Source: Squalus acanthias
Lineage: Eukaryota
Assembly (NCBI GenBank): GCA_030390025.1
Contig: CM059431.1
Coordinates: 106,890,001-106,954,000, forward strand
Length of the DNA: 64,000 bases
Direction: 5' to 3'
Within the stretch, counting starts at the first letter, position 1, and every line of letters begins with the position of its first letter. Positions 1,485 through 64,000 of this stretch are shown piece after piece. A model generated the notes under the pieces. That model worked only from the letters and a program-made list of their open reading frames with translations. It ran no database searches and was not told the origin of the DNA. The position numbers were made by a program, and so were the translations under genes.

Positions 1485-1904
1485 GCTTATCGCTGATGTC
1501 ATTCATTGACTAGTATAAAGAGGCATTTACTTGTAAATTCATAGGTATGCTGACCACCTCAGTTTGACTTTTGCCCATCCTGCATTGCAAAGTCAAAAAA
1601 GTGTTCTATTAATGCTGAGCCCAAGATTGACAAACCTGATTCTTATGCAGTGACAGGCAGTCTTTAATGACAGGCAACCACAAGGCTTGAGCATGTGACC
1701 ATTTGGTTAGAAGGCAGACAACTTTTCTACTGGGACATTTTAACAACATTATTTTTCACATTGCATAATTACCTGACATTCTTTTTGTCAGTAGAAGATT
1801 TTATCATGTCACTCTGAATGAGAGAAGCATTGATTAAACTGTTAAGGAGGTTATCTCCTTAAAGAGGACATAACAGCAGAGTGTGGGGGGGGGAGAGGGG
1901 GTGG

Positions 1905-4105: not shown

Positions 4106-4908
4106 CAACCCACTCCACTGTATTTAAACACGATCTTCATATCACTGGAAATTATTTCGAGTCTCGTCAGCAAAAATTACAAAAATAGAAATTATTGGTC
4201 ATGAGCGTTCTTCCACTATTTCAAGGGTTTTTCTTGTGTTTGGGACTGATGCACATTGATCGATGTACTGGGAGCTTTACATTTCACCTGATCCTGACTT
4301 GAGAGGACAGTACTTGAAAACTGATACTGAATGTAAAATAGAAAAACAAGCCCCAGTGAAATAAATCTGGGCATGCCAAGTAGAAGGTCCTCTGAAAGGT
4401 AAAAATGACGGGGCGGATTTATAGACCTTACGAAACAACCTACAAACGTCAAAAGAACAACAAGGCCGATAAAATAATGCGATCAATTACCCCGCAAAGA
4501 CTCAAGTGTGCTGAACCAGCAACTTCAGTGCTTGGATCACCCATGGAGTGCGTCCTGTGAGACACCGGAAGTACACCACGTGATGGTATAGTTCTCCACT
4601 CACAGGGGCTTCCATCTACTCGTCAGTAAGAAACGTCATTGCCATGAATAAGGAAACACACTGGCGGTCTGTAGCAGGAAAGGATGAGCCAGCACTGGCA
4701 GGAAAAGTTTGCAGAAGCATCAGTTGCATCCATTTCCGTTTCTGGAATTTCCCGTGGCAATGTGGATTGCTTTCCTTCAAGGGTACTGCCTGCATTATGC
4801 CACCCAAAAATTCTCACGATTAAAATACTGATGCGTGCAACTGAAAATATGACCGGATTACTGGCATGCACACTGTCAAAAATCGCAACTTCTACAAGAA
4901 GTAACTCA

Positions 4909-5101
4909 GGAAGTACTACTGGGCGGCCAGCTGGGGCGCTGTCCGGGGAGTATAAATACTCGGGCGTGGGCCCACCTTGGGCAGAGACAATCTGGAAACA
5001 GGAAGCTAGCGACTGCTAACTAGACCGCCATGTTTTGTTACAAGTTGATTAAAGCCTCGCTTTATGTTCAACCAAGTGCGTAGTGAGTCTTTATTACGTC
5101 A
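4909..5101 (+). repeat. Short (~190 bp) LTR-like repeat, copy 1
   Basis: Similar to 5961-6141. TATAAATA box, ATTAAA, ends TTACGTCA. Confidence 0.45.
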
Positions 5102-5520
5102 CACACTATAGATATCTCAGAGGATTCCTCATATCCAAATGGCCAGTCTTGATAGTTCAGAAAAGCGCATCGACTGATGGGATTATTTGAACATCATGTG
5201 GTACAACATAATTTATTTCTCAAAGGTAAAAGGAATGTCAATACCTTCACTGAAATTCGTGTACTCCTTGCACCGGAGTGTCCAGGTGTTTCTTGTGTTC
5301 ACAGTACCTATCACTACAGGAAGGAATCACAGCCACCTGGGGATGTGCAATGTGGGGTTTCGGTCTGGTGTGTTGTTGCTTAACACGTTCTAATGTCAGT
5401 GCGAGGAGTCCCTTGGACCATCATTGTTGTTTAAGCTCTCTTGTTCTTGAAATCACTGAGAAATCTTAGGCTGCATTTCAAATAAACTCTTGCCTTTGTT
5501 TGCAACGCTTGCTGATTTGA

Positions 5521-5905
5521 AGGGTCAGCCGTGGCTCAGTGGGCAGCACCCTCTCACCTCTGGGCTTAGAAGGTTGTGGGTTCAGGTCCCACTCCAGGGA
5601 CTTGAGCACAAAAATCTAGGATGACACTCCCAGTGCAGTGCTGAGGGAGTGCTGCTGCACTGTCGGACGGTGCCGTCTTTCGGATGAGACGTTAAACCGA
5701 GGCCCCGTCTGCTCTCTCAGGCGGACGTAACAAAAACAGATCATCTGGTCGTTATCACATTGCTGTTTGTGGGACCTTGCTGTGTGCAACTTGGCTGCCA
5801 CGTTTCCTACATTACAACAGTGACTATACTTCATTGGCTGTAAAGCGCTTTCAGACATCCGGTGGTCGTGAAAGGCGTTGTAGAAATGCAGGTTTCTCTT
5901 TCTTT
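5521..5905 (+). mobile_element. tRNA-derived Deu-type SINE (SacSINE1-like)
   Basis: Pol III A box GTGGCTCAGTGG and B box GGTTCAGGTCCC; body shared with 44405-45365; LINE-like tail. Confidence 0.8.
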
Positions 5906-5960
5906 TCAGAGCAAATGGGGCGGGCAGGTCATTAAAATGGAGTTTGACATGAATCTTGTA

Positions 5961-6141
5961 TGAAGTAATACTGGGTGGCCTGCTGGTGGCGCTGTCCAGG
6001 GAGAGAATAAATACTCGGGCATGGGCCCGGCTTGCTTAGGACATTCCTCAACAGGAACTAGTAAAGGACACAACTAGATCTCCATGTTGGAAAACAGTTG
6101 ATTAAAGCTTAGACCAAGTGCCTAGTAGTTTTCTTACGTCA
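5961..6141 (+). repeat. Short LTR-like repeat, copy 2
   Basis: TG...CA ends; homologous to 4909-5101. Confidence 0.45.
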
Positions 6142-6694
6142 GAGTTCACGTTGCGTTCCCAGCCGCCGCCATTTTTACTCACCTCAAAATCAGGCCGCTT
6201 GCCCCAGTCAGGCGGGGGCCTACCTTAAATTCAAAAGTCACGACCCGATAAAGCCATCAGCGTTGTGACGCAATTTTTTGTTCAGTAAACTGGGAGGCCC
6301 ACACGGGGCTAAACCTGACAGCCGGACCCGGCCTAGCTAAGTATGTTTATTTGACTTTTCGAAGGATTACTTGTGGGGCAGAAAGGGGCAGCGGTGCTTC
6401 CCCCTTAGGCCCTGCTGGGAGTCCTTGAGCCTCCCTGGACCGGGCCTTGCCTCTCTCTTCACAGAGCTGTAATGCTGCCAACCCTCCCGGATTATCCTGT
6501 AGGCTCCAGGAATTAAAGAATTGCTGCCGTAAGCAACCCTGGAGAAAAAAATCTTAGGGGCCTTAAGGAAAAATTGTGCTTTTAAAAATGGTGATGCGTC
6601 GTGAGCATGGCTGTGTCGGGCAACCAGTGGCGGGTGTGCGGGGGCAGGGCTGTAGGAGGCTGGAAGTCATGTGACAAAACCTCCAGGAATATGT

Positions 6695-7127: not shown

Positions 7128-7294
7128 TCCAACTAAAGTTGCCAACCCTACACTATCAGCATCTCTTTTCAACCGTCTCCCCCCCCCCCCCCCCCCCCCC
7201 CCACCACTAACTGTATGCCAGGGATCATTGGGCCTCCTGTTCTACGCTCTGTGGGGGAGTGCTCGCCCCGCACCTACCTACCCGGCACCAACCC

Positions 7295-7445
7295 ACCCCG
7301 AAACCCACCCACCCCGAACCCCACCCAGCCTGGACCCCAGCAACCCCGAACCCCACCCAACCTGGACCCCAGCAACCCCGAAACCCACCCATCCCGAACC
7401 CCACCCAGCCTGGACCCCAATAACCCCGAACCCTACCCACCCATC
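7295..7445. repeat. C-rich minisatellite (~32-bp unit)
   Basis: Repeats of CCCCGAACCCCACCCAGCCTGGACCCCAGCAA. Confidence 0.85.
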
Positions 7446-8042
7446 CTGCACACACTCCAAGTTAAAATTGGAGCTGTAAAGTTTGTTTAGCTAAACATTG
7501 TTCTTCAAATGTTCAGTTTGACGATGTCAAATCCTTTTGAAAGGCATGAACTACTAATCTCTAATGCGACTGAAATATCTTATTCACTCTTAGCTGAAAA
7601 TAAATCAATACTAAATAAACATATCAAATAAACAACACAAGGCTTTGTATTCTGTGTCAATAACTAATCAAGCTCCTTACCCCTCACAATTCACCTTGCC
7701 TCAGCTGGGCAAAGCTTGAATGGGGCTTGTAGAGATATATCACCTGGGATCTTCAAGATGACAGTCAAGATGCTGGCCATGGGGTAGAAGTTGGTTCATG
7801 TCGGCAGACCGGGGAGAACTGGGCTCAAGGAACGATCGACATTAGGCCCCAGGCCTCATTTTAATAACATTGGGCCTTGGGTCTCACTTTAATTAGACGG
7901 GCGAGCTGCGGACACTTACTGCATGTCACCAGGCAGCTCACCAGCAAAGGGATGGTGAAAGTCGGGCAACTGGCAGCAGCACTCCGGTAGGTTATTTTCA
8001 CCTTTTTGTCTAGAGAAAGACAACATGGTGCTCAGCAAATAT

Positions 8043-11000
8043 TGTAGAATTCGCAATATAATCGCGATTTTATAAATAAGGAGAAAACACATAGTTTCGT
8101 TCAAACAGCTTTATTTCAGCAGAATGCTGTCAGGTTTTCAAAGTGGACACAAGCAGCCTGTAAAATGGCCGCCACGCCTCGTGGCAGAACATTCTAGACT
8201 TTTCGATAAGCAGACAAGATGGCGTTCCAATAAACATTTGTGCGAGATCGATCAAGACTCAGCACATTTGAGATAATACACGAGACATTATGGGTTTGCA
8301 GTATACACATAAATACTGAAATCGGTCTCCCAGGTGCGAATAAGGGCTATTGTACCAAGCGATCAAGAACCCATCCAAAGACATTAATATGCAAAATCCC
8401 CACGACTCTACGATGAGAGAGCCGTTTGCGGGTAGTTACAGAAAACATTTGGAAGCCCCAAAACCCCTCCAGGGAGAATACCGACCGGTTACACATTGGA
8501 AAAGTATTAACAGGTACTCAGACAGTTACGAGTATCCCCGAAACCCATTAAAACGGAGATCACCCTATACAAGAAATTTGAGCGCCAAAACCCTAACAAA
8601 AGAAAAGACATTAAGGTTGGGCGGGAAAAGAAGAGTTTTCGCACTATAACTGTAAGCTGCAACCGTCCATCTTTCTCTTATCCTTTCGACTCCTTGCCGC
8701 TTGCCTCGTGTCTCTGCCTCTTGCAGCTTTTAAAGACTGTTGAACTTTACGATCCGCCAGGATCTGCCTCGTGGCTTGCCGCGAAGATCTGTGTGGAACT
8801 GGGCTGTGAAGCCTTGAAACGGGCACGCCATCCCGAGAAGTCGGTACACGGTGTTGGAATCGAAGGCCTGAGATGAGATGAGATGAGATGAGATGAGAAG
8901 AGAAGAAGACGACCATACATATCGCCACGGTCAGTAAGCCCCGACCGTGCCTGTAGGTCAAAGAGACACTTTCCTTGCCCAGGAAGACCATCTTTGAGTT
9001 CTACAGAACTGGCATCGGAAGACTATTCTTTGAGTTTTATCGAATCAGTGCGAGGGCACAGGAAGACTATTTTTCGAGTCGTGTCGGAACTCCGAGGACA
9101 ACACAGATCTTCATGACAGCAGACGGTCCAGTCTGTTAGCCGGAGCAGAAACGAGTAAACAAGTGGGGTACAGAGACCCCTGATCAACACGTGGGTGATC
9201 AGGTGCTGCGGTGAAAAACATCCGATCAGAGTTTTCGGAATTCTCCGAGTTATCACGAGTGGTGAGCATGAGTCTCGATCCTACAAATCTAGTTTAGAGC
9301 AGGTATTGATAGGGGAGGGTTTAAGTTTTAAGGATAACTGTAATGTGTGCCCCCATTTACGATGTGTCGTTCGTTCCTCGTTTCCCTGAAATTAGTTACA
9401 TAACTGCGTGTAAGATTGTACTGTCATTAATCTGTGCTTATGACATGTATTTCGTAATCTTGAATAATATGCAATAAAGATTTTCCATTTCGTACCATTC
9501 AACCGGGTCTACCTGAGTTTTCTCTCCATTACTGCTCTCGCATCTAAGTCCAGTGTCAGAACCGTAAGGGCGAGTGGGTCATAAGAACATAAGAACATAA
9601 GAAATAGGAGCAGGAGTAGGCCAATCGGCCCCTCGAGCCTGCTCCGCCATTCAATAAGATCATGGCTGATCTGATCCTAACCGCCAATCTACTATCTATC
9701 ACAGAACCATCTCCTGCATCTAACAGAATTGCACACACTAAATAGGAGCAGAATCAGGCTACACAGTCCCTGGGCCCGCTCCACTACCCACAGGGCCATG
9801 ACCGATCCGAACCTAGACTCATGTCCAAATTCCTGCCCGCTCCCCGTAACCCTTAATGCCCTTTACTTCTAGGAAACTGTCTATTTCTGTTTTAAATTTA
9901 ATTAATGTTGTAGCTTCTACAGCTTTTTGTGGCAGCATATTCCATGGACCTACCACCCTCTGAGTGAAGTAGTTCCTCCTCATCTCAGTTTTGAAAGAGC
10001 AGCCCCTTATTCTAAGACTATGTCCCCTAGTTCTCGTCTCACCCGTCATCGGGAACATCCTCCCCGCATCCACCCGATCCAACCCCTTCACAATCTTATA
10101 TGTTTCAATAAGATCGCCTCTCATTCTTCTGAACTCCAATGAGTAGAGTCCCAATCTACCCAACCTCTCCTCATATGACCACCCCCTCATCCCCGGGATT
10201 AACCGAGTGAACCTTTTTTGCACTGCCTCGAGAGCAAGGATGTCTTTCCTTAAGTAAGGACACCAAAACTGTATGCAGTATTCCAGGTGCGGTCTCACCA
10301 ATACCTTGTACAACTGAAGCAATACCTCCCTATTTTTATATTCTATCCCCCTAGCAATGAAAGCCAACATTCCATTTGCCTTCTTAATCACTTGCTGCAC
10401 CTGCATACTATCCTTTTGAGTTTCGTGCACCAGGACCCCCAGATCCCTTTGCACTTCAGTACTCTCCAGTTTCTTGCCATTAAGATAATAAATTGCTCTA
10501 GGATTTTTCCTGCCAAAGTGCATCACCTCACACTTTCCAGTGTTGTATTCCATCTGCCAAATCTCTGCCCACTTACTTAGCCTGTCTATGTCCCCTTGCA
10601 GGTTTTTTATGTCCTCCTCACTCACTACTTTCCCTCCCATCTTAGTATCATCTGCAAATTTTGATATGTTACACTTGGTCCCTTCCTCCAAATCGTTAAT
10701 ATAGATTGTAAAGAGTTGGGGACCCAGCACTGACCCCTGTGGAACACCACTAGTTACTGATTGCCAGTCTGAGAATGAACCATTTATCCCAACTCTTTGC
10801 TTTCTGTTAGATAGCCAATCCTCTATCCATGCCAGAATATTACCCCCAATCCCGTGATTTTTTACCTTAAGCAATAATATTTTGTGTGGCACCTTGTCAA
10901 ATGCCTTTTGGAAGTCTAAATACACTACGTCCACTGGTTCCCCTTTATCCACTCTATATGTTACTTCCTCAAAGAACTCCAGCAAATTTGTCAAACATGA

Positions 11001-14367: not shown

Positions 14368-17117
14368 ATCCTTTTTGCATCCATTTCTGTTCATGAAGAA
14401 TGACCACATTGTGATGGCATTGACGATACAGCGAGCAGGCCAACATAATGATGAAAAATGAATGTGCTATGTCATAGCTCTCAACAGATGGAAAGGATGC
14501 TGAATTACAGGGAAATAAGTTACACGTACTGACATAAAAATATACAGCACACAAAAAAAATCAAAATCTCAGAATGTAAAAAAAAAGGAACAAAATACAT
14601 TACTGCCAATCAATGAGGTAAAAGAAATCAAGAGAAAATCACTGAAAGTTAGCGGGGGTGGGGGGGGGGGGTGGTGGAATCATGAGATTCTTGGGTTGCC
14701 AAGCAACAGGAGCCACATCCCCTTTCTCTTGAACAAGGCCCCCATTTGCTTTTTAATTTTTTTTTTAATAAGTGTGCCTTTCTAAAATACATATGTTTCA
14801 TAGCCAGACAGTTCATCTACCGCTCAGTCATAGTTGCCCCAAAATTGCTACGGTGTGAGTGTTGATCAGCAAAGTGCAGAGCAGAGAAGAACACGGACTC
14901 CGTAGGAGGTAAAGAGGGAAGAGAGAGAAAGAGAGATGGCGGATGATAGGGCGAGGAGGTGACTTCTAGCATAAACATCGATTTTTACTTCAGTAGCAAC
15001 GTTGCAATTGGCCTCAGCTTGAAAACAGATCAGACGGGTTTTTGCTATTCCATTACTCCTACCCGATATGTGTTGAGTCGGGGCAGGGTCGGACTCAAGA
15101 TAACATTCTGAGGCCATTTTATGTAATCGCTTAATTCTCCAGCAGAGGGCGATCAGTCCTGGAGGTAGTTCTATTTTTGTTAAACTGGGGTTGGAGGGTC
15201 ACTATGTTTGAGCATGGCTGCTGAATAAATTTAGCCAATTATGGGATCGTGTTGTAAAAGGAGCAATTAATCTCCAGTGTTATTCAAACCAATGTTCCAC
15301 ACACAGCATTCCTGATTTGCAATTAAAGATTTTTTTTAAAAATGAATCAATGTTACAATTAAATGCATTTCATCTTAAAATTTATTTCCTCATGGATTAT
15401 CCATTAATACTGGGAAAGCAACTTTTATAATCAGAAAAATAATAATCAGTATTTTGCTTCATTTAATTTGTTCATTTAATGAAAAATAATCTTTGAATAT
15501 TAAATAAGAAATTTCAGTCGCAATCGCTGAGTGGACCCTAACAGGTCTTCACAGGTCTAGACCCTCATGTGTCCTTAGGGACTTATTGTTAAACCAAAGG
15601 TTTTTTTAATATATAAAAATGTGAGGACAAATTCATCCCCTTAGCGCCTCCTGTTGGCACCAGCAGATGGCACTAACGGGGCGCTAGAGCAGTATCGTGG
15701 GGTGGAGCGAACCCAGAGCCACATTGCAAAATCCCGTAGTGTCGCCGTTATTGCCGGGAACATCAACGGCAGATGGATCGTGACATCAGTGAGTGTGCAA
15801 CGCTCACTGACCGCCCGTTCTGCTAAATTGATTGTCGCCTCCTACCTTAGTGCCTGGGGTAAACACCGACAGGGAGAGCTGGCGTGAAGCACCAGGAAGC
15901 CAGCTCCAGGGACATTATTTAAAGGGATCATCAGTAATGACTTGCAGCTGTCAGGTTAGTGCGGTTTCAATGGTTTCTTGTCAGTTTCACATACTCCAAC
16001 AGTTTAATTCAGTAATTTCAAGATTCTTTTGTATCATGTTCCTGGTGGCAGCATGGCCCTCACCTTAACCCAACTCTTGTGCCTTTATGCTTTCAGATAA
16101 TCAACAATCACATGAGCAGCCTGTTCCTGAGGGCACCATAGAGAGCGAGGCGGGAGAAGAGGAGGAGGAAGTACACACCATGTCACTGCATCTCTCACCT
16201 GCAGACACCAGCTCAGAAAATGGCACTACACATTCTTTAGAGGCTAGTATAGTAGCGGGATCTGCACAGGGTGAGGCACAGGGATGAGTGGGCTGCAGCC
16301 AGGCCAGGGGGAAAGGGTAGCTCAGGGACCAGCTCCCGGGAGGGTGATTTTGTGCATGAGTTCTGCTGCACAGGACTCAGATGAGGACCTCAATGGGGAG
16401 GCCTTTAGAAGAAGGGTGATGGGCATGCACACGGAGATGATAGGTGCAATGGCAAGGGTGCCCGAGAGCCTCTCGGTAATGGTAAGGAGCATGGACGAGT
16501 CCACCTCCAACATTGCACAAGGCTCTGCGCACACCATGGAGCCCATCATTTCAAGTCTGCAAAGGATGGTGGACTCCCAGAGAGACCGTGGCGACCCAGA
16601 CCTGATGCCGCGTGTGATGGGCAATCTGGCAGCTTCCATTGCAGCACAGGCAGAGGCGACGCAGCATCTTAGTGCTGTCGTGCAGTCTCAGCTTGATGCC
16701 ATGCAAGTTCTGACTGCTGCCATCAAGGTGTCGCAGTACGCCAGCAATCTGTGCTCCAACAGATTGGTAGTGATGCTGAGGTGCTGCCCCGGGGGAGTGG
16801 CAGTGGGTCAGTGGAGCAGGAAGCTGCTGTCCTCTCTCAGGATGACAGCATTCCTGCTCCCACCACAGCCACTCCGCCATTGCCCTTGTCGCTGCCTGTC
16901 ATCCAGCCAGCCCAGACTGCTGCCGTCCATGCTGAGATGGTCTACAGCCGGGCCTTCCAGGTCCAGAGCTAGTCGAGGGTGTCCTGCAAGGCCATCTGAC
17001 GTCTCCCACACAGACACTCAGCAGCCTTTCACCAGCCCTGCTGCAGCCACTGGGCCAACACTTTGTTGGAACACTAGAGTAAGCAAAGGTACAGTAACGA
17101 CAGGCACTAAGGGATTG

Positions 17118-17351
17118 AATTTAGAGGTCGCACAACACCAGGTTATAGTCCAACGGTTTTATTTGAAATCACAAGCTTTCGGAGCTATCGATCGCCCCTT
17201 CCTCAGGTGAAGTACTACTTCACCTGAGGAAGGGGCGATCGATAGCTCCGAAAGCTTGTGATTTCAAATAAAACTGTTGGACTATAACCTGGTGTTGTGC
17301 GACCTCTCAATTTTGTCCACCCCAGTCCAACACCGGCATCTCCGCATCATG
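17118..17351. mobile_element. Penelope-like insertion with inverted pLTR
   Basis: 12-bp TSD ACTAAGGGATTG (17106-17117 and 17352-17363); 97-bp inverted arms centred on 17215. Confidence 0.8.
17221..17260 (+). ncRNA. Minimal hammerhead ribozyme core (mirror copy on the minus strand at ~17170-17209)
   Basis: CAC-CTGAGGA-(GGGGC...GCTCC stem)-CGAAAGCTT-GTG matches the CUGANGA/GAAA core. Confidence 0.6.
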
Positions 17352-51600: not shown

Positions 51601-51769
51601 GGGAAGAACCCATTCTCTTTTGACCACAGTGACTTGTGTGCATAATTGGTTGTACAATCAGACCGTGACAGTGTATTCAATGGGAAGTGGCTGAGCCAAT
51701 GTTCCTTCGTGGTTTCTAAACAAATGCATTAAAACAATCAAGTAAAACAAGTTGCTTGGTGGTTGGGAC

Positions 51770-53425
51770 TGTAAGGGGTTTCGGCGTGCTTGTATCGCAG
51801 ACGGTGCTGGTGCGAGGTTAGGCCTTCGTTGCCTAATACTATTGCTTGCTCTGGTCTCGGCCAGCCTTGTTGCAATAAGCACCTGTGAGTGGTTCGACCC
51901 ACTCGCCCTTACGGTTCTAACACTGGACTTAGGTGCGAGAGCAGTAATGCAGAGAAAAACTCAAATAGACCCGGTTGAATAGTACGAAATGGAAATCTTT
52001 ATTGCATAGCGTCCAAAATCATGAAGTACATGTCATAGGCGCAAATTAACGAGAGTACAAGTATACATACATTCATAAAGCTTGGTCTATGGTAATGAGG
52101 AACGCACGGCACATCGTAAAAAGGGGAACACATTATACTTTATCCTTAATAAAACCACCCTCCCCTATCAATACCTACACTACACCTAGATTTGTAGGAT
52201 CGGGAAACATGCTCACCACTCGTGATACTTCGGAGAATTTTAAAGTGAGGCACTCGGCTCATTTCGCTGCAGCGCCTGACTGTCACGTGTTTGGAGGGGT
52301 CTCAGTACCCCACTTGTTTATCTTCGCTGCTGCGGCAAGCAGGCCGGGCTCCCCGTTGTCATGAAGAACTCGACAGAACTCGGGCCCGGCTGTAGAACTC
52401 AAAGAAAAGTCTTCCTGTACCGACACCAGTTGTCGGTAGAATTCAAAGAAGAGTCTTTGACCGGTTCGTGCAATAACCTGTAGAGTTCAAGAAGTGGGTC
52501 TTATAATTTCGGGCGTGGTCGGGGTTTACTGACCGCGGCGGCACGTGGATTCTTCTTCTTTTCTTGTCATTTCGTCTTTTCCTGTTGGGCCTTCGGGTCC
52601 AGACACCGTTTACCGATTCTCGGGATGGTGCACCCGGTCACTTGCCTTTGTCGAGGCGGCTCGTTCCGATTGAGCTCCACCCAACATTCGAATAACCGTC
52701 CAGTGCGGCTAAAGTCCAGAGTCAACAGAGTCCAGAGAAACACAGAAGGCTGCTCGTCCAGCAGAGCGATACCCGAGGATCAGAATAGGAGAATAAGAGC
52801 CGATTCGAGCGAATAAGAGAGCGATGGACATTTGTTCACTATAGTTATAGTGCTGTGTTCCCTTATCTCCCGCCCAAATCTTAATGTTTGTCCTTTGTGA
52901 AATATTGGCGCTCAAAACTCCCAGCATGGGGCGATTCTTGTCTTTAACGGGTTTCGGTAGCACCTGAAACTGGCCAACTACCCGTTAATGTTTTCCTCAT
53001 TGTTGAACCGGCTAGGAGCCTCCCTGGCTGGGTTTTGGGGGCCCCCGAATACTTGTTTAATCACCCGAGAATGGCTCTCTCATTGTAGAGCCGTGGGGGT
53101 ATTTGTGTGTTGATGTGTCTGGATGGGCCTTCGATTGCCCAGTACAATGGTCCTTACTTGTGCATGGAAAACGATTCCAGCACTCATATCTTTTGCTATT
53201 GTCACAAATGCAAACAGTTTGCATCCTGTCTTATATTGAAATGTTTATTCGAACGCCATCTTGTCTGCCCACTGTAATTCTGGAAGCTTCTGCTACGATG
53301 CGCGGCGGCCATTTTACAGGCTTCTGTGTCCTTTATATCATGACAGCATTTCATTTAATAAAACTGATCAAACGAATCTGCTTCTATCTTGTTATTTTGA
53401 ATCGCGATAATTGCGAAACTTTACA
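51770..53425 (-). repeat. 3' LTR (1656 bp)
   Basis: TG...CA; AATAAA on the minus strand at 51998-52003; near-identical to 60823-62479. Confidence 0.97.
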
Positions 53426-53437
53426 GTCCCTCCTGTT
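53426..53437 (-). promoter_or_regulatory. Polypurine tract
   Basis: AACAGGAGGGAC lies immediately before the 3' LTR on the minus strand. Confidence 0.8.
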
Positions 53438-53708
53438 GATGCGAATAACTCCGCTTATCGTATCAATTAAAAATGGTGGTGAGCAAAATTATCCTGATTC
53501 TCCACATCCAAACACTCCCTTAACTTAAACTATCTATGGCCTCCATGCCGTCCTCATTTCCCAGGGAAATTACATTGTCTAAACTTAGACAAAACGTAGG
53601 CAGTATTGCCTTTAAACTTACACTGCGTATACGCCTTCCAGGTGCAAAAGGCCGATGCCTCTCGCACCACCTGTATATGCATATTTTATTACACAAGGAA
53701 AAAATAAT

Positions 53709-54452
53709 GGCCCAAAAATTAGTGAGTGAGCCTTCGTGCGAGGGTAAGGCCTTCCCACGATCTCTCACTGCGCGCTGGCTTTTTCAGTCCGAGCTCGCAC
53801 GAACTTGATGTTCTGGACAGCAGCTGTGCAGGGCTTTCGTATCCCACAGGCGTAGTTAATTCGTGCGAGCTGTGGGATCACGTGACTCAGTTAGAGCCAA
53901 TGGCAGCACACCATCTTTCATTCATAGCTTTCACAGCACGGCTGTGAAAGCAATGAACACTATACCCCCCCAAAAGAACAGCTAAACCTCAATTAAATTT
54001 AAAAAATAAACCATCACATTAATAAAATAAGTATAGTTAAATAAATTAACCATTTTAAACAAAAAATTAAATTTTTGAAAAAATTTAAAATCTTTTAAAA
54101 AGTTATAAAAATAAACTTACCTGTCTTTAAAGTCTCTAAAAAAGATATACCTGTTAAAAAAAATTCAAAATAATACTTAATTAAGTACTTACCTTGTTAA
54201 AAGAGGGTCTTACACCTCCTTTCTTTATGTCTAAAATCTTCCATGCTTACCTGCGCGTTCAAAGCACTAAGTGCACTGCGTGCGCGCAGCCTGTAGCGCA
54301 CACGCGGTTCACCTAGGAACCGCCCCCTTTTGAATTCACCAAGTGCCGGTTTTCAGCGCATGCGCAGTGCATGCAGAAAACCGGCAATTGGAGACAGAAT
54401 ACGCGAGAGTACACAGTGCGTACTCTCGCGTAGCGGCACTAATTTTTGGGCC
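53709..54452. mobile_element. Harbinger-type MITE in the proviral 3' UTR
   Basis: 16-bp TIR GGCCCAAAAATTAGTG with AAT TSD. Confidence 0.9.
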
Positions 54453-54566
54453 AATCAAAACAACCATTTTAAAATACAAAGTTCCAAACTTAGTTACACA
54501 TCTACATAACTAAACAATCAATTACAAAACACACATGGTAAAATGGAGCGGTGTCATCCTGGCCGT

Positions 54567-57500
54567 TTACGCAGCGCTTTCCTCGTTCACGCGCACGTAA
54601 CGTTCTCTCCACTCCCCTGTGTTCTCCTGCTTTGTGAGGCGTTTGCCTCTCTTGCAGTGCACGACCAATAGGTACACTACAATTATAACTTGGCACACAA
54701 CCAAAATGTGGGAGGCTATCCTGATCCATGAAGGAACTTCAATATTGGTGAACAGATCTCACCACGGTGGGATTACTATGTCCAAAAATTTCTGTCCCTA
54801 TTTCTACTGTTTTCTGTTCCAGGGTGTAAAAATGTTTTTGTGATACCGCGACGGCTTTCAAAAGCTTGGTGAGGTGTTCAGGGAGAGGGGGAATGATGTA
54901 TCCGAAATGCGCGACGAATCGCTGCAAGTCGGTGAAATTCTCTTTTACTGTAAGGTGAACAGTGGATGGTTCAGGGATCGGGACAATTCGCTGTTGTGCC
55001 ACTTGAACTTCAGCCCTGGGTTTAAAACAGAAACTGCTGTCACTCACCGGACACCGGCTGGTGTGTCCATGCTGGTAGTGTTGCGCTGCAGTGGTAACGC
55101 AATATGTTCCACCCCCTATGTATGCCACCTGCGGAGGCACATGATCCTGTGTCATTGCTTCCATGGTGCAATTCATGGGCTTCGCGCCAGCCGTTCTGAA
55201 CCCGCATTGTGGTGTTAAAAAGGCATTCAAGTGCTGGGGACACAGTATGATGTGTGCTCCCCGGCCACGACAACCCGAGAGATCGGTACCTGTCATCGTT
55301 TGCTCCCAGCGGATGACGTAAGGTGGGACCGCTGCGTAGCGAATGTGGGCTCCCCCCTGAATGACACCAATGTTCTTCACCCGTTGCACCGGGGCAGGCT
55401 TTGCCGTTTCGCCCAACACCGGCATACATAAGAACATAAGAACATAAGAAATAGGAGCAGGAGTAGACCAATCGGCCCCTCGAGCCTGCTCCGCCATTCA
55501 ATGAGATCATGGCTGATCTGATCCAACCTCAACTCTAAAGAACACAAGAAGCAGGAGCTGGATCAGGCCACTCGGCCCCTGGGCCCGCTCCGCCACCCAC
55601 AGGGCCTTGACCGATCCGAACTCAAACTTATGTCCAATTTTCAGCCCGCTCCCCGTAACCCCTGATTCCCTTTACTTCTAGGAAACGGTCTATTTCTGTT
55701 TTAAATTTATTTAATGAAGTAGCTTCCACAGCTTCCTGGGGTAGCAAATTCCACAGACCCACTACCCTCTGAGTGAAAAAGTTTCTCCTCATCTCAGTTT
55801 TGAAAGAGGAGCCCCTTATTCTAAGATTATGTCCCCTAGTTCTAGTTTCACCCATCATTGGGAACATCATCACCGCGTCCACCCGATCAAGCCCCTTCAC
55901 AATCTTATATGTTTCAATAAGATCGCCTCTCATTCTTCTGAACTCCAATGAGTAGAGTCCCAATCTACTCAACCTCTCCTCGTATGTCCACCCCCTCATC
56001 CCCGGAATTAACCGAGTGAAACTTCTTTGTACTGCCTCGAGAGCAAGTATGTCTTTTCTTAAGTATGGACACCAAAACTGTATGCAGTACTCCAGGTGCG
56101 GTCTCACCAATACCCTATACAACTGCAGCAATACCTCCCTGTTTTTATATTCTATCCCCCTAGCAATAAAAGCCAACATTCCATTGGCTTTCTTGATCAC
56201 CTGCTGCACCTGCATACTAACTTTTTGATTTTCTTGCACCAAGACCCCCAGATCCCTTTGTACTGCAGTACTTTCCAGTTTCTCGCCATTAAGATAATAA
56301 CTTGCTCTCTGATTTTTCCTGCCAAAGTGCATAACCTCACATTTTCCAATATTGTATTGCATCTGCCAAATCTCTGCCCACTCACCCAGCCTGTCGATAT
56401 CCCCTTGTAGGTTTTTTATGTCCTCCTCACTCTCTACTTTCCCTCCCATCTTTGTATCATCTGCAAACTTTGCCCATGATGGTATGATTTGACCGTCCGC
56501 AGTCCACGGGGACTGGATCCTTTAAGTGTAGTGTCATGGCCTGGTCCTCATGTAACTCAGACCCTACTACCTTGTTTTCGCTTGTGAGGATGCTTTTTAA
56601 TTGTGTTTTTAAACCATTGATCTGGGTCTGCAGCTCCACATTGTCTAGAGCGTTGACCACAGATGTTCCTGTATTAAAGGCAGTGAACATATTGTTCACA
56701 ATACCCCTTCTTTGTCTCCCCACCTGACCCAAAACTTCGTGTGGTGTGGTGTACAAGCTTGTTTTGTCAATCTCCGCAAAATCAAACTCGTAGAATTGTC
56801 TGAACATGTTTGTCAACAGGACCTGGTACAATTGTTCTGTCTCTTTGGGGCACCACTCTGGTAAACGCACCTCGGTGAGATTTAGAATCACCGAAGCCAC
56901 CGCGTAATGTACCCCTTGAAATAGTATCTGGTCTGTTGGGACCAGTACCAAACCATTCCCGGGCCCCTTAGTGGTTTTAGGGCACCCTTCCTCCTGAGCC
57001 AAAACCACCGGAATCGTGGGCGGAGCCTTGCGTGGGCGCGTGCTGAGTTCAGTGGCGTTTACCGGGATCGGGGAGAATGGAGCTCCGCACCCCTTTGTGC
57101 TGACATCCCACCTCATCCCTTTCCTGTTATCCTGCCACTGGTGTACGAAAAATATGGATATACCCTTGGGGCAAACGTACTTCGATCCCCACATACAAAC
57201 ATATATTCCCTCATCCGGTTCCCACCATTTGTCCCAACAGACTTTCAATTGTCTGTTAGTCCCCATAATTGTCCGATGGGTGTTGTTACCCAATCGCTCC
57301 CACTCAACCGAGGAATTTCTCATAGTCTTGCTTAATTTCCGTAACCACCACCATCGGCTCAATGGGACCTTCCCATTGCATGTCAAACAAATCCTTTTGC
57401 CGACGGTGACGCTGATTCTGGGTGCAATGATCCTCACTCTGGGGCACAGTAAAGAAGTCTCTTTGTAGGCAAATCCGGATGCGCTGGAGTATTCCATTGA

Positions 57501-57695
57501 ATTCGTTCCCAGCCATCCCGGCCACCTTCCCTTGTGGAAATAAATGGCAGTCTCCTCAGCCTTTCGCTCCCCGGTCCCATCCGTCGCGATGGGTCCCGTG
57601 TCCCCGGAGCAACCAAACACAACGACATCCTTGGTGAGGCCCCGATAGGCCAATCCATATCCGATCGTTGCGAGCACTATCAGAATCCTTTCCAT
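54567..57695 (-). pseudogene. env: Envelope glycoprotein, split by CR1, with a frameshift and a stop near the TM segment
   Basis: Signal peptide MERILIVLATIGYGLA; furin site RQRR (56706-56717) followed by a hydrophobic fusion peptide and heptad repeat. Cys-rich part at 54780-55425; TM IASHILVVCQVIIVVYLLVVHC then KRGKR; TAA at 54567. Confidence 0.85.
55426..56471 (-). mobile_element. Young 5'-truncated CR1 inserted in env
   Basis: Open RT C-terminal ORF at 55628-56449; (CATAAGAA)n tail; same subfamily as 9580-11120. Confidence 0.95.
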
Positions 57696-57926
57696 CTTTC
57701 CTGGTTCCTGTGATCAGATAAAATGATGTAGCCAGCCTCCCAAGAGTCTCTGGCTTTTGTGAAGGGTGAGCGGGTCCCTTGACCTCGTCTCACGTATAAC
57801 GACATGTATGCTGGATAGACTTTAACTATTCCTATCTTTAACTCCCATCATTCACCATTTACTTTTAAAATTAAAACTACAATCTTACCAAACTTACAAA
57901 ACTTAAACTTAAACTTAACCTAAACT

Positions 57927-59018
57927 TAACTGTACAGTGCCGCCCGTTCCCAGGGCGGCCTACCTAAATTCTGCGAAGGCTGCCACGAGCTTTTCCCAGT
58001 GGTGGGAGGGCACTGACCCCTTCCTTTGATCTGCCGCAGCCTGTCGCCGCTGCGCTGGGACTGGGATCTCCCTGGGCTGCCTTGACCTTGAACTTACGCC
58101 TGGGGGCCTACGGGGGACTTGACCACGACTTCCTGGGCTGGGGTGTCCGACTTGACCTACGGAGGGCTACTTTGGGCAAGATTTCCAGGGCCGACGGACC
58201 AGGAACCAAGACTTCCACCGTCGCGGCCTGTGGTCCCACCACAGCCGCTGGCTCCGTCTCCCCTGGCTCCGCCCCCCTGAACTCGGGATTTGCAGTTTCT
58301 GGCTCCACCCTACTTGGCCCAGTATGTGGTCCTCCACTCGCAATTCCTACCTCCCCCAAGGGCAAGACATCCAGGGCCGACGGACCGGGTACCGAGACTT
58401 CCACCGTCACGACCTGTGGTCCTACCACAGCCGCTGGCTCCGTCTCCCCTAGCTCCGCCCCCCTGGGCTCGGGATCTGCAGTTTCCGATTCCACCCTGTG
58501 TGGATCTCCACTCACAGCCCCTATCTCCCCTGAGCTTGAGTCGAGGACGAAACTTTCGTCCTCTGACCCCAGCACCTCTCCGATCGGGTCACTACCTTGG
58601 TCGAGCTCCTCGAGCTCTTCCTCATCTGAATCCCAACACCAAGAAAAGATCCTACACTTTTCTAGAATGTCCTCTCCTCTCAAGCAGGCTGCTTTACCGG
58701 TCTGTGTGCCCTGCGGTCCTACCCGGGGCTGCGAGTCCCCACTCGCAGTTTTGGCCCCTGTGATTGCCCCTGTGCACCCGGTTTATACAACTTGCACTGG
58801 TTTAAATCCTCATACTTCCTGCTTCTGGCTACCCTGCAGGCTGCCTTTATGTCTGCCTTTATGTCTCTAAGCTGCCCTTCCAGCCCGTCTACTTTCCCCA
58901 TTAAACGGGCGTTCTCCTCCCGTATGGCCTGCTCTTTTAACCTGGCTTCCTTACAGGAGACCCCCTCCTGTGCGTGTCTTTTAAGGGGACACAGGTAGGC
59001 AGGCTGCACCGGTTCCAG
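57927..59018 (-). pseudogene. Disrupted accessory ORF2: Gag-like coiled coil followed by an acidic/Pro-rich region with a 62-aa repeat
   Basis: ORFs 58719-59009 and 58108-58683; tandem duplication 58176-58310 vs 58362-58497. Confidence 0.55.
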
Positions 59019-60818
59019 TCAGAAGCCTGGGTGGTATGGGGCTGTTGCTACCTCCCCGTGCGAAATCATAAGAGACCGCATGGCTCCTAACATTGATTCT
59101 ATCGCATCGGGATGGATAGGCACACCAGCTCCTTTCTCAGAGACAGGCGCTTGGGTTCGGGCTGCGGGATTTTTATCCCTGGGGTCCTTCCAGGGGTTCC
59201 TACAGTTCTTACGCCAGTGACCTGTCTTCCCGCACCCGTAACAAGCACCACTGGCTTGTGGGGCGCGGTTTCCCTCCTGATGCCACTCCTTTTGAGCCGG
59301 GGCTGCGAGCCGTGCCTCATGCACCTTTCCCTTAAGGGGACGCGCTCCCGTGCTCCTAGTGTTACGATACCCTATGGTGAGTCGATTTAGGACAGACTCC
59401 TCTGTTGTGGCGGGGTTAGTGGGATCAAACCATGCTTTGGCCTGCTCCCTGACGGCTGGTAAGCTGTTGGCTACTAAACACCTGAGCCAGTGAGCTAAAC
59501 CGGCACCGTTCAGGTAGTCGTGCCCCGGCGCACCTGGGCAGCTACGCTGGTATACTGGCCACAGCCTGTCGGCGAAAACCTTCGGGGGTTCTCCCTCCAT
59601 CTGTATGGTTTGACTCAATATGACGAACGGACCTTCGTCATCCGCCCCTAACACTTCTAGGACCTCGTCCCGTAACTCCTCATAGGTTTTATTTCCCTTC
59701 TTGCTCTCGTCTGAGAGACACTGAAGGATCGAGCTATCTAACGAGAACAGCAACATTTTGGTCTTTTCCACATCGTCGCAGCCATTAATTGCTGCGGTCT
59801 GTTCTACCTCCCTAAAGTGTACGGAAGGGTCGTCTGACTCGGACAGCTTCCGTACATGGCTAATCATTGCTCTCAGCTGGTGTGAGCTGTGAGGCAACAC
59901 AAGCTGGTTCAGGACATCCCCGTCATCCCCATTGGCTGCGTTCGGGCCTCTCTTGTAACCTCGGAGCGGACACATCGGTCCCGGGCTCGACTCTACCTCC
60001 GGGGACTGTCCTACCTCGGGAACCTCCTTTTCTATTTCCACCACTTCCTCCCTTACCCAGGTTGCCGAATAGCTGGGTGGCGCGGAGGGCACAGTGGCAA
60101 ATACCTCCTCTGCTTTGTCTGGTAGGGATTTTGGGAATTCCCTACCCACCTGTGGCTGGTTTTCTGACGGGCTGATGAGGCACACCAAGCCGTTTGCCTT
60201 ATTCAGGGCCTCTCTTTGGTTCCCTATCTCCTTCTGGCAAACACTGTGGTCGGCTCCCTCATGCCTATCCTCGAGGGCCATCTTATATGCCGCCCTAACT
60301 CCCTTCAAGCTTTCTTCCTGGGCTTTTATCTGGTTAGCTAGGCGGGCACACCGTTCTCTAATCCTACCCTCGTTTAATTTCGCTTCCGTGACCTGACACT
60401 CTAGGTAATCAATTTTAGCCTCATGGTGGTTGGCTACTATCTGGTGTTCCTGATGTAACGCATTCAAGGATGCAATGAGTTTCTGTCCTCCCGTGATCTT
60501 TTCCTCCATCTCAACTTCCAAATCCCTGATCTGAGCTGCCTGTGCCACAATGACCTGGTCCGAAAGTTGGACTTGCTTCTTGTAGCACATCAGCCAGACC
60601 GCTTTCTCTACCGACTTCTTATGTTCTTTACTGCCTGTCCATTTGATGGCTGCGTCTCGCGGACGCTTATCCATCAGTAGGTCACTTATCCACCTTTTGG
60701 TTAAGTTAACCTTCCCAAACACATAGTCGGCTACCCTCTCATCCATCACATTTCGCCTATTCACACCAGGGTCTAAAACATTACCCTCTCGCTGCCAGTG
60801 TCCTGCCACGGTCGCCAT
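59019..60818 (-). CDS. gag: Gag polyprotein, 599 aa
   Basis: Open frame from AAAATGG. N-terminal coiled coil, PSAPPSY, capsid-like region and CCHC knuckle CYGCGKTGHWRKNC (59202-59243). Confidence 0.92.
   Translation of the reverse strand: MATVAGHWQREGNVLDPGVNRRNVMDERVADYVFGKVNLTKRWISDLLMDKRPRDAAIKWTGSKEHKKSVEKAVWLMCYKKQVQLSDQVIVAQAAQIRDLEVEMEEKITGGQKLIASLNALHQEHQIVANHHEAKIDYLECQVTEAKLNEGRIRERCARLANQIKAQEESLKGVRAAYKMALEDRHEGADHSVCQKEIGNQREALNKANGLVCLISPSENQPQVGREFPKSLPDKAEEVFATVPSAPPSYSATWVREEVVEIEKEVPEVGQSPEVESSPGPMCPLRGYKRGPNAANGDDGDVLNQLVLPHSSHQLRAMISHVRKLSESDDPSVHFREVEQTAAINGCDDVEKTKMLLFSLDSSILQCLSDESKKGNKTYEELRDEVLEVLGADDEGPFVILSQTIQMEGEPPKVFADRLWPVYQRSCPGAPGHDYLNGAGLAHWLRCLVANSLPAVREQAKAWFDPTNPATTEESVLNRLTIGYRNTRSTGARPLKGKVHEARLAAPAQKEWHQEGNRAPQASGACYGCGKTGHWRKNCRNPWKDPRDKNPAARTQAPVSEKGAGVPIHPDAIESMLGAMRSLMISHGEVATAPYHPGF
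60801..60817 (-). promoter_or_regulatory. Primer-binding site, tRNA-Arg(UCG)-like
   Basis: TGGCGACCGTGGCAGGA lies 5 nt after the 5' LTR. It is complementary (one mismatch, from recalled sequence) to the vertebrate tRNA-Arg(UCG) 3' end TCCTGCCGCGGTCGCCA. Confidence 0.75.
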
Positions 60819-60822
60819 TTTC

Positions 60823-62479
60823 TGTAACGGGTTTCGGCGTGCTTGTATCGCAGACGGTGCTGGTGCGAGGTTAGGCCTTCGTTGCCTAATACTATTGCTT
60901 GCTCCGGTCTCCGGCCAGCCTTGTTGCAATAAGCACCTGTGAGTGGTTCGACCCACTCGCCCTTATGGTTCTAACACTGGACTTAGGTGCGAGAGCAGTA
61001 ATGCAGAGAAAAACTCAAATAGACCCGGTTGAATAGTACGAAATGGAAATCTTTATTGCATAGCATCCAAAATCATGAAGTACATGTCATAGGCGCAAAT
61101 TAACGAGAGTACAAGTATACATACATTCATAAAGCTTGGTCTATGGTAATGAAGAACGCACGGCACATCGTAAAAAGGGGAACACATTATACTTTATCCT
61201 TAATAAAACCACCCTCCCCTATCAATACCTACACTACACCTAGATTTGTAGGATCGGGAAACATGCTCACCACTCGTGATACTTCGGAGAATTTTAAAGT
61301 GAGGCACTCGGCTCGTTTCGCTGCAGCGCCTGACTGTCACGTGTTTGGAGGGGTCTCAGTACCCCACTTGTTTATCTTCGCTGTAGCGGCAAGGAGGCCG
61401 GGCTCCCCGTTGTCATGAAGAACTCGACAGAACTCGGGCCCGGCTGTAGAACTTAAAGAAAAGTCTTCCTGTACCGACACCAGTTGTCGGTAGAATTCAA
61501 AGAAGAGTCTTTGACCGGTTCGTGCAATAACCTGTAGAGTTCAAGAAGTGGGTCTTATATTTTCGGGCGCGGTCGGGGTTTACTGATCGTGGCGGCACGT
61601 GGATTCTTCTTCTTTTCTCGTCATTTCATCTTGTCTTGTTGGGCCTTCGGGTCCAGACACCGTTTACCGATTCTCGGGATGGTGCACCCGGTCACTTGCC
61701 TTTGTCGAGGCGGCTCGTTCCGATTGAGCTCCACCCAACATTCGAATAACCGTCCAGTGCGGCTAAAGTCCAAAGTCAACAGAGTCCAGAGAAACACAGA
61801 AGGCTGCTCGTCCAGCAGAGCGATACCCGAGGATCAGAATAGGAGAATAAGAGCCGATTCGAGCGAATAAGAGAGCGATGGACATTTGTTCACTATAGTT
61901 ATAGTGCTGTGTTCCTTTATCTCCCGCCCAAATCTTAATGTTTGTCCTTTGTGAAATATTGGCGCTCAAAACTCCCAGCATGGGGCGATTCTTGTCTTTA
62001 ACGGGTTTCGGTAGCACCTGAAACTGGCCAACTACCCGTTAATGTTTTCCTCATTGTTGAACCGGCTAGGAGCCTCCCTGGCTGGGTTTTGGGGGCCCCC
62101 GAATACTTGTTTAATCACCCGAGAATGGCTCTCTCATTGTAGAGCCGTGGGGGTATTTGTGTGTTGATGTGTCTGGATGGGCCTTCGATTGCCCAGTACA
62201 ATGGTCCTTACTTGTGCATGGAAAACGATTCCAGCACTCATATCTTTTGCTATTGTCACAAATGCAAACAGTTTGCATCCTGTCTTATATTGAAATGTTT
62301 ATTCGAACGCCATCTTGTCTGCCCACTGTAATTCTGGAAGCTTCTGCCACGATGCGCGGCAGCCATTTTACAGGCTTCTGTGTCCTTTATATCATGACAG
62401 CATTTCGTTTAATAAAACTGATCAAACGAATCTGCTTCTATCTTGTTATTTTGAATCGCGATAATTGCGAAACTTTACA
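60823..62479 (-). repeat. 5' LTR (1657 bp)
   Basis: TG...CA; followed by the PBS on the minus strand. Confidence 0.97.
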
Positions 62480-64000
62480 GGACAGTTTGTTTAAAATATT
62501 AATGTGCAGATTGACAGACAGCAGAAGAGATGATTTCAATCTGTCCAGATATTGAGCCATTACGGGAAAAGTTCAGAGGAAGTGACTGAATCCAGACATA
62601 CTCATAAGGTGTGACATCTTTTGTTTATTAACATCAAGGTAGTGGCTCTAAACATGAAAGATGTCCCATGGCATAAATCACAGTTGGTTAGATTCAGTTC
62701 TGGCAGGAATTTATAACTGTCTGGATAAACTGGGATTTGCTTCATCCATTTACAACATTGCCTCTGTAAAGTCCTGCAAAAGACAAACCTGCTTCATCCT
62801 GTTGTTTATTTGACTTTTTCCAAGAAATGTGTTCTTAAAAGTGTATATTATTCTCTCAATTCTAATTATTTTTAAGTATTGTGCTGATTCAACGCATTGC
62901 TGCATTGGCTTCTGCGGATTTATTCTGTAAAAATAATTCCACCGAGTAGTTTTAGCCCAACACACTGGCTGATCAGTGCATTTTCCACCCTTTGGAAGTG
63001 GCAGTAGAATTCGATGGGCGTTTATCCACAATTAGGGGTCAATTGTTAAATCTGGGCATGTTAAACCATAACATGGCATGCATTAGCACAACAGATGTTG
63101 GTTCCTATGAAACATGGTCTGCTCATTGTAGCTGCTTTTGCTACGAATAAAGTGTTGAGGAAAAATCCCAAACTGTAACGGGCCCCATAACTCGATTAGA
63201 TTACCATGTATGTATCTGATGCATATTCCAGCAGGAGCTGGAGGCCCAGCTGCGATCTGTTACTTTTCTTCCTGACTTAAAACAAACAAAGTTTAAGAAA
63301 AATAACTTTTTGCCGTGTTGAATCTATCAACAGATAGCAGATGCTTGTTCGCCACTTGCCAGTATGGTGGGGTAGCTTACAGTATGTAAAACATGGCACA
63401 GTATACATGCTTTTGTGCCACCTTTTAATGAGGCAATCTGGCTTGAATTAGGAAACACCTGGGCATATTTTTGACAAAACCTGATATGCAATAATTCAGG
63501 GTACTTTAGTTTATAATTCAGCTGTGATATCACTTGTATGCATTATTTCCATCAATTAGTACAGTTAAAAGCTAAATAGATTTGAAAATGTTGTTATTGT
63601 TCAATCTTCAATAATTGTTTTGAATTAATTGCGCTCGTCAATGAACAAAAACTATCCCCAAGGATTGGTTTGGACATTCAAATTTTGATGGGCCTTCCCC
63701 ATAACCTTGCAGTACGGTGCTTTCAGGAGACAATTTAATGCTGGGGGTGGGGGGGGGGGGGGGCGGGTGGATGTTAAAAGCCAAATTTCAATCTTCAGCA
63801 TTCAGTAGAAAATCATGGGCAATGCACGCTCAATTTTTCAATATGTGCGCCCTATAACGCAAAGCACTGTGCTGGAAGCACTGAAAACAAAAAATTACCA
63901 GCTGGCTGAAAGAGTGGCACAGGTTGGAAACCCATTTAAACTATGAGGGTAGATTTTATGTGTTTGTGCTCCCATTGTGAAGCTTCGCATGTCAGTATAT

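Follow-up and report, generated by a model that had tools for sequence, protein, structure and literature searches.

What takes the place of pol when a retrovirus has lost it, and could the frame behind gag still be reached by ribosomes? These questions are raised by an endogenous retrovirus (ERV) of Squalus acanthias, a provirus on the minus strand of the 64,000-nucleotide stretch analyzed here (GenBank assembly GCA_030390025.1, contig CM059431.1, positions 106,890,001 to 106,954,000 of the forward strand; in the following, the window). In order, it comprises a long terminal repeat (LTR), a primer-site-like stretch, gag, two open reading frames (ORF2 and ORF3), a spacer, env and the second LTR (Table 1). 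A first-pass annotation had proposed that an old readthrough gag-pol junction was fused by deletion to a second, Gag-derived gene. The feature itself is confirmed by our analysis and this interpretation partly supported, the origin and the expression of that gene remaining putative. The reading we favor, at roughly an even chance, is a helper-dependent shark ERV family which reads through the gag stop into a Gag-derived, acidic extension of low constraint.

The gag stop and the frame behind it

The absence of pol from its slot was borne out by a motif scan in six frames, which revealed neither a protease nor a reverse transcriptase (RT) or RNase H motif; nothing resembling an integrase motif turned up in a plausible frame either. 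Likewise, a Pfam scan of seven ORFs gave no enzyme domain. Featuring LTRs, a target-site duplication, a primer site and a purine-rich tract without any of these enzymes, the element is a pol-less ERV. As described in the first pass, gag ends with TTC TGA CTG GAA and its frame continues, remaining open for 99 codons up to a TAG at 58,721-58,719. For comparison, 64 of the 4,865 stop-to-stop frames at positions 1-50,000 of the window, used as chance background, reach 99 residues, and shuffled ORF2 DNA stayed open in 129 of 10,000 cases. The claim of a leaky UGA-C context needs narrowing, since 369 of 1,904 TGA triplets have C as the next base, so that UGA-C alone is weak evidence; it is the longer TGA-CTA/CTG that is rare (41/1,904).

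Nevertheless, the gag stop is probably an old gag-pol readthrough junction, as suggested by a diverged copy, by lokiretrovirus genomes and by the relatives of the Gag fold. One diverged contig (run X6; 21 loose letters) matches the start of ORF2, carries TGA-CTAG and keeps the frame LEPxQP, and its letters upstream of the stop differ from those of the window copy. UGA-CUA or UGA-CGG followed by a 3' stem-loop defines type II readthrough (PMC3159437; here and below, statements taken from papers refer to the parts of them at hand). In the supplement of PMC7947760, the gag stops of the consensus genomes Loki-Ofa, -Cne, -Pyo and -Sau read TGA-CTAG-G and share their frame with pol, with frames counted by eye; TGACTAG occurs there at at least 17 places, of which these four are gag stops in frame with pol and 13 are not. 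In Loki-Bsp, gag ends with TGA and the listed pol gene begins with CTG (adjacency of the two not seen), and other Loki genomes feature a single fused smc-gag-pol frame (PMC7947760). Readthrough sites with UGA are also given for SSSV (the swim bladder sarcoma virus of salmon), the zebrafish ERV ZFERV and a frog ERV, none of them experimentally verified for epsilonretroviruses (PMC13517186), and XtERV-S likewise carries an in-frame TGA (PMC8278194). The nearest viral folds of Gag (see below) belong to such listed readthrough users.

As to the lokiretrovirus junction, neither readthrough nor frameshifting gave a match in the available main text of PMC7947760, the available part of a 2026 review does not list a UGA-CUAG junction for this group (PMC13517186), and a literature search pairing lokiretroviruses with readthrough found none. 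Frameshifting as junction mechanism was rejected for the shark element; the two slippery heptamers within 58,700-59,400 (at 59,274 and 58,806) both lie away from the gag stop. Scans for the junction motif returned nine metagenome and three genome loci, none of which was related by tblastn, with one chance blastn match of 23 nt.

Gag homology of ORF2 and the gene it belongs to

The first-pass annotation aligned the peptide behind the stop with Gag itself, and comparison with shuffled coiled coils had been set beforehand as the test. Here, we used a profile of the Gag N-terminal block made without ORF2, comprising 10 rows, or 9 when the Gag of the window was removed as well, with the two most distant of 12 sequences serving as controls. 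ORF2 residues 24-71 score 31.0 bits against the first and 28.8 bits against the second profile, and neither plain (0/1,000) nor heptad-preserving shuffles (0/1,000 per profile) reached this score, their maximum being 18.1 bits. The score even lies above that of the distant true Gags P0013 and P0018. Pairwise alignment of ORF2 24-60 with Gag 145-181 gives 15 identities in 37 positions (E 2e-4); its score of 63 was reached by 0 of 2,000 plain shuffles and by 3 and 0 of 2,000 heptad-preserving ones. Both proteins furthermore feature the motif RDI.A.....ACR/K, which is not a heptad feature, and the best coiled coil in the PDB matches ORF2 at an E value of 2.7 only. Judged by these alignments, the homology is real but short, covering about 45 residues, and a 12-nt tandem duplication (58,842-58,865) lies within it.

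The idea of a duplicate of the Gag N-terminal domain was thus right in the relationship but not in extent, as the match does not amount to that domain. Among 37 proteins scored, five Gags of a sister subfamily (84, 76, 72, 68 and 67) exceed the 63 of the element's own Gag. In a phylogenetic tree, ORF2 falls within the close Gag family (support 98/95) on a long branch, and with 63 columns, eight of ten inner branches stay open and no donor is named. Since the sister Gags outscore its own and the tree leaves the donor open, ORF2 could either stem from an old duplication or have been captured from a sister lineage. At the DNA level, no likeness of ORF2 to its own gag was seen (8/300 shuffles; best match elsewhere in gag). 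A crude heptad score did not separate the coiled coil from other Gag regions and was not used, and a complex prediction of Gag 100-212 with ORF2 15-80 (score 0.01) says nothing either way.

The first 23 codons of ORF2 lie outside the profile match and, by sequence, are probably a remnant of the start of pol. At its other end, ORF2 is overlapped by ORF3, which starts in another frame and is probably the rest of the same gene, so that ORF2 would make up no more than the opening third of a larger gene, broken in the window copy. At 58,760-58,785, contigs of all four analyzed sequencing runs differ in length from the window copy, which fits such a break. The span given in the first pass, down to 57,927, takes in this second frame (58,782-58,108) and an in-frame stop. 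ORF3 scores -2.6 bits against the Gag profile; accordingly, the Gag homology stops at about ORF2 residue 71. A Pfam scan gave no family match for ORF3, whose two repeats (58,174-58,497) are 89% identical.

Possible expression of the extension and competing explanations

The segment is not peculiar to the window. Part of it is present in 20 of 22 listed sequencing runs, with no RNA run among these, and in each of the four runs analyzed, which stem from three organisms, all 30 bins are covered by 1,780-6,606 contigs, with a share of only 0-0.02 continuing into unlike sequence. Contig depth is not a copy number; by its coverage, the segment appears to be family-wide, occurring in many copies and in three organisms. 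The comparison of contigs rests on those differences that were listed, namely 24 of the 612 loose ends, 40 of the 503 substitutions and 12 of the 22 indels. Within 57,964-59,018, these copies differ in length by 6, 39, 69 and 186 nt, which, like the 12-nt duplication of the window copy, are all multiples of three, and one single-contig variant of 38 nt is not. Five of six length variants hence keep the frame (P 0.018 at a chance rate of one-third), or five of seven (P 0.045) if the break of the window copy is counted as a miss; four joints with inserts of unknown size were excluded from this count. Substitutions in ORF2/3 relative to other copies were synonymous in four of six listed cases, a weak sign (P 0.04).

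We infer that the family depends on a helper, that its gag stop is read through, that ORF2 and ORF3 form one gene in other copies and that the fusion protein is packaged. The family would encode Gag and Env without enzymes and be copied with Pol supplied in trans. It would have kept the gag-pol junction of its parent, i.e., the UGA in its CU(A/G) context and about 20 codons of the pol start, which recombination may have joined to a piece of coiled coil whose Gag belonged to the same wider family; behind it come an acidic, a proline-rich and finally a basic tract. Most ribosomes would stop at the UGA and a few percent continue, resulting in Gag with an extension of about 300-350 residues, which would be made at the normal Gag-Pol ratio and could enter particles via its Gag part. 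Across copies, the frame would be kept open while length and sequence drift, a pattern in keeping with an extension that is mostly disordered and might chiefly serve to let ribosomes past the gag stop and thereby shield the unspliced RNA from nonsense-mediated decay. For murine leukemia virus (MLV), readthrough is said to protect unspliced RNA in this manner. The coiled coil could possibly serve as a second oligomerization site. The window copy itself is dead for the extension gene, owing to the frame shift and the in-frame stop, and also for env.

A bolder version of this reading, which we hold to be rather unlikely, is a long-lived, satellite-like shark lineage with a selected, Gag-derived second protein in place of pol, made by UGA readthrough and packaged at the Gag-Pol ratio. 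Its coiled coil would act on the lattice of its own or the helper's Gag, e.g., by recruiting helper Gag-Pol or by favoring its own RNA, and the parent would be an undescribed retrovirus with an epsilon-like Gag and an Ig-plus-F-like Env.

Several results weigh against the favored reading of a readthrough extension. The stop context of the window copy is CUG and not the canonical CUA, the predicted stem-loop starting about 14 nt behind the stop is weak (z -1.64 and -1.54; 11/200 and 16/200 shuffles), and the first 60 nt behind the stop show no stable folding (z +0.35; 123/200 shuffles). None of the contigs listed covers the whole stretch or crosses the stop into gag sequence and, as only 24 of 612 loose ends are listed, others that continue into pol may have stayed hidden. 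At the break, the length difference accounts for only 7-42% of summed depth, so that broken copies may be common. Across 47 codons, the ORF3 repeats show 10 non-synonymous against 4 synonymous differences and thus no sign of purifying selection, and in gag itself, only 2 of 13 listed substitutions relative to other copies are synonymous, which suggests that the sample reflects mostly the window copy's own decay. Finally, weak searches for longer proteins matching ORF2 (175-2,000 residues; 0/524 candidates) or ORF3 (393-2,000 residues; 0/7,793) were without result.

Part of these observations would equally suit a passenger relic, an explanation we likewise consider unlikely, although it is the most serious competitor. 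Here, a single template switch onto the gag of a sister lineage would have created a defective genome that was amplified passively, with the readthrough signal left over and an inert product. Joining of distant parts is frequent among defective members of this ERV family, as in the gag-env gene models P0016, P0019 and P0032, and joints 60,827-57,450 and 58,854-60,564 are found in single contigs; ORF3 repeats free of amino-acid constraint and the tolerance of large duplications point in the same direction. Against a mere relic speak the five of six length variants that keep the frame next to a spacer in which the listed indels are single bases, the stop context and frame kept in the diverged copy, and the presence of the segment in three organisms.

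Less probable is that ORF2/3 forms an accessory gene whose message arises by splicing or from an internal start, with its gag frame inherited or due to chance and no readthrough taking place. Such a gene could make use of an acceptor-like site right in front of the Gag-like piece (58,978; 11 of 15 nt are pyrimidines, but with AAG), of donor-like sites upstream and of an ATG at 58,901. In fish foamy-like ERVs, an ORF located between pol and env is subject to purifying selection (PMC5210030). Yet the acceptor is weak, the context of the ATG is poor, and the diverged copy keeps TGA-CTAG together with the codons right behind it, i.e., upstream of the acceptor.

Slightly lower still do we rank the option that the coiled coil and the low-complexity tract belonged to pol in an autonomous parent, as its native 3' end or as a gene fused to it, and that a deletion removed the protease, RT and integrase in between. 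The first 23 ORF2 codons resemble the start of pol, and the order of tail, spacer and env is that of pol and env. ORF3 terminates with an LRRSxR..P..R stretch, which may be likened to the tails of many Ty3/Gypsy integrases. On the other hand, the weak searches for longer proteins described above count against such a tail as well, and a copy of the Gag coiled coil behind integrase was not met in the literature searched.

A generic coiled-coil similarity, finally, is very improbable and was rejected: pairwise scores of ORF2 against the skate Gags P0001, P0003 and P0004 do lie within those of shuffles (P0001: 296-740/2,000), but the profile scores above all 2,000 shuffles per profile and above two true Gags, the shared non-heptad motif and the poor PDB match decide against it.

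Gag, Env and the relation to known systems

The structure model of Gag comprises a long helix (68-183) and the features of an orthoretroviral capsid, namely an N-terminal proline and a beta-hairpin at 286-307 (strands 286-290 and 302-307); a single CCHC knuckle follows at 526-539, with a Pfam zf-CCHC score below cut-off. Named relatives are proteins of the skate Rhinoraja longicauda (59% identity), and others occur in catshark, horn shark and whale shark. In a fold search, the best viral matches were walleye epidermal hyperplasia virus 2 (WEHV2), the Rhinella marina ERV and WDSV, the dermal sarcoma virus of walleye (E 2e-7 to 7e-7 for the three), with the MLV capsid ranking first in the PDB (E 2e-3), while language-model features in the ESM Atlas point instead to a Ty3/PEG10-like Gag. 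Consequently, Gag looks epsilon-like by predicted fold and Ty3-like by language-model features. The representative protein search gave 33 matches, none of them a Gag-Pol fusion (longest match 636 aa), and no Gag relatives were among 18 and 265 pattern matches in viral and metagenome contigs. The relative P0002 carries an internal duplication of about 18 residues within the same Gag coiled coil, suggesting that this region duplicates readily. In P0016, P0019 and P0032, two of which are from whale shark, gene models fuse gag pieces to env pieces; we read them as other deleted or spliced derivatives of the family. The first ATG of gag overlaps the primer-site-like stretch, 5 nt from the LTR (60,800-60,822), and relatives show partial conservation of its first 24 codons; a leader would hence have to sit in the LTR, or translation starts at the second ATG at 60,746.

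Env is broken, and its Ig-like stretch matches Pfam Ig_3 at E 0.7 only; related pieces occur in whale-shark gene models. Envelopes of the gamma type carry a CX6CC motif. By eye, none was seen in the translated pieces of the shark env, which in contrast has a long Cys-rich part after RQRR, and neither piece matched PF00523 at E 10. Layout and a GPGxGxVL stretch resemble, again by eye, the starts of Loki Env proteins. The ESM Atlas gave no usable match, and a single-sequence model (predicted local distance difference test, pLDDT, of 33) was not used. From its sequence, Env thus appears not to be gamma-type and is not provably F-type. An Ig-like N-terminal stretch before a lokiretrovirus-Env-like region, next to an epsilon-like Gag, is an unusual pairing.

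The two LTRs differ at 23 of 1,657 columns (1.4% divergence; Kimura two-parameter distance 0.014). With the shark substitution rate of 2.2e-10 assumed by Han 2015 (PMC4422223), insertion would date back about 32 million years, this rate being uncertain. Both LTRs, at 1.66 kb long ones, contain stop-free frames of 91-155 codons. No Rfam match was found over the provirus and no tRNA gene in the 64-kb window. Elsewhere in the window, pieces at 8,050-9,580 are 72-79% identical to the LTR in opposite orientation and adjoin a long interspersed nuclear element (LINE) at 9,580; they are probably a solo LTR of a sister subfamily. Further features are a C-rich tandem array with a 16-nt period (7,261-7,452) and an open frame of 311 codons of unassigned kind (16,275-17,210) beside a perfect hairpin of 97 nt (17,118-17,312).

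Table 1. Features of the provirus and its surroundings (positions in the window).
Feature	Position	Strand	Remarks
Target-site duplication GGAC, 4 bp	62480..62483 and 51,766-51,769		read on both provirus flanks
5' LTR	60823..62479	-	1,657 nt, TG...CA ends; 98.6% identity to other LTR
Primer-binding-site-like stretch	60800..60817	-	begins TGG, 5 nt behind 5' LTR, overlaps first gag ATG; putative function, from position
gag, 599 aa	60,818-59,022; stop TGA 59,021-59,019	-	open frame
gag stop, candidate readthrough site	59016..59021	-	TGA-CTG context
ORF2, 99 codons, gag frame	58719..59018	-	open frame
First 23 codons of ORF2	58950..59018	-	weak or no Gag match; LC/PLK motif resembles MC/PLR at capsid start
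Gag-homologous coiled-coil piece (ORF2 24-71 = Gag ~145-190)	58806..58949	-	profile and pairwise alignment
Frame-shift place in window copy	58760..58785	-	near 58,765; contigs of 4/4 runs differ in length
ORF3, 224 codons	58108..58782	-	acidic tract, two 62-codon Pro/Glu/Ala-rich repeats, basic end
Further 47 open codons behind in-frame TAG	57964..58107	-	6- and 39-nt length variants among copies
AT-rich spacer before env	57700..57930	-	GC 0.38; 6/6 listed indels are single bases
env 5' part	56473..57695	-	signal-like start and Ig-like stretch; RQRR site at 56,717; stretch resembling a fusion peptide; heptad repeat
LINE inserted into env, 5'-truncated	55427..56472	-	presumably CR1-type; 90-97% to another copy at 9,580-10,663
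env 3' part	54567..55426	-	Cys-rich region; transmembrane piece behind it lies in a different frame (break near 54,750)
Inverted-repeat insertion, 746 bp	53708..54453	.	perfect 17-bp terminal inverted repeats, internal hairpins; inside provirus, behind env
Purine-rich tract	53426..53437	-	precedes 3' LTR
3' LTR	51770..53425	-	partner of 5' LTR

Placing the family would require an RT, which the element lacks. The epsilon-like WDSV, WEHV2, SSSV, ZFERV and Rhinella marina ERV share the Gag fold, the CCHC knuckle and an in-frame stop after nucleocapsid (PMC13517186), but in the shark element pol is missing, its slot is filled by a Gag-derived gene and identity is only 11-17%. Lokiretroviruses are alike in the coiled coil at the front of Gag (annotated "smc"; here the helix 68-183, a feature that is not group-specific), in the RxRR site, in a long fusion subunit and, in four genomes, in TGA-CTAG in frame with pol (PMC7947760). 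Their zebrafish relative BHIKHARI is pol-less and Gag-only, and its Bik-1 Gag has a glycine-rich patch where the shark Gag has the zinc knuckle (10.1101/2024.03.25.586437). For none of these, however, is a second Gag-like piece behind the stop described in the parts at hand, and lokiretroviruses were found in 0 of 6 chondrichthyan genomes screened (Wang and Han, 2021; PMC7947760). With alphavirus type II readthrough (PMC3159437), a class with a stimulatory stem-loop placed 8-12 nt downstream, the element shares UGA-C, but the shark copy has CUG and a stem that is not significantly stable.

Proviruses without pol are a familiar phenomenon, as is readthrough at gag. Defective helper-dependent elements include ETn and VL30, and in plants, the Copia-type Sirevirus SIRE1 is said to reach an envelope-like coiled-coil ORF by suppression of a stop, there a UAG behind an intact pol and with an ORF that is not derived from Gag. 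Defective retroviruses of the Moloney murine sarcoma virus type (named in PMC13517186) keep LTRs, primer site and purine tract and have lost pol, as the shark element has, and spread with the enzymes of a helper, as it would; in the shark element, gag and env both persist, and what replaces pol derives from gag and not from a host gene. A high-copy family with a readthrough slot refilled by a frame-keeping, Gag-derived gene was not found in the literature searched, which included few subscription papers and left out Repbase, Dfam and bioRxiv supplements.

As a by-product, the comparison revealed the UGA-CUAG gag-pol junction of lokiretroviruses, which is unremarked in the available main text of PMC7947760. 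Families such as the one described here are invisible to RT-based screens, the method of shark ERV surveys (PMC4422223; PMC7947760). If the favored reading of a readthrough extension is true, this retrovirus has built an accessory protein from its Gag, possibly a new route for a helper-dependent retrovirus to gain a protein, and the element points to a parent virus, not described so far, that pairs its Gag and Env in an unusual way.

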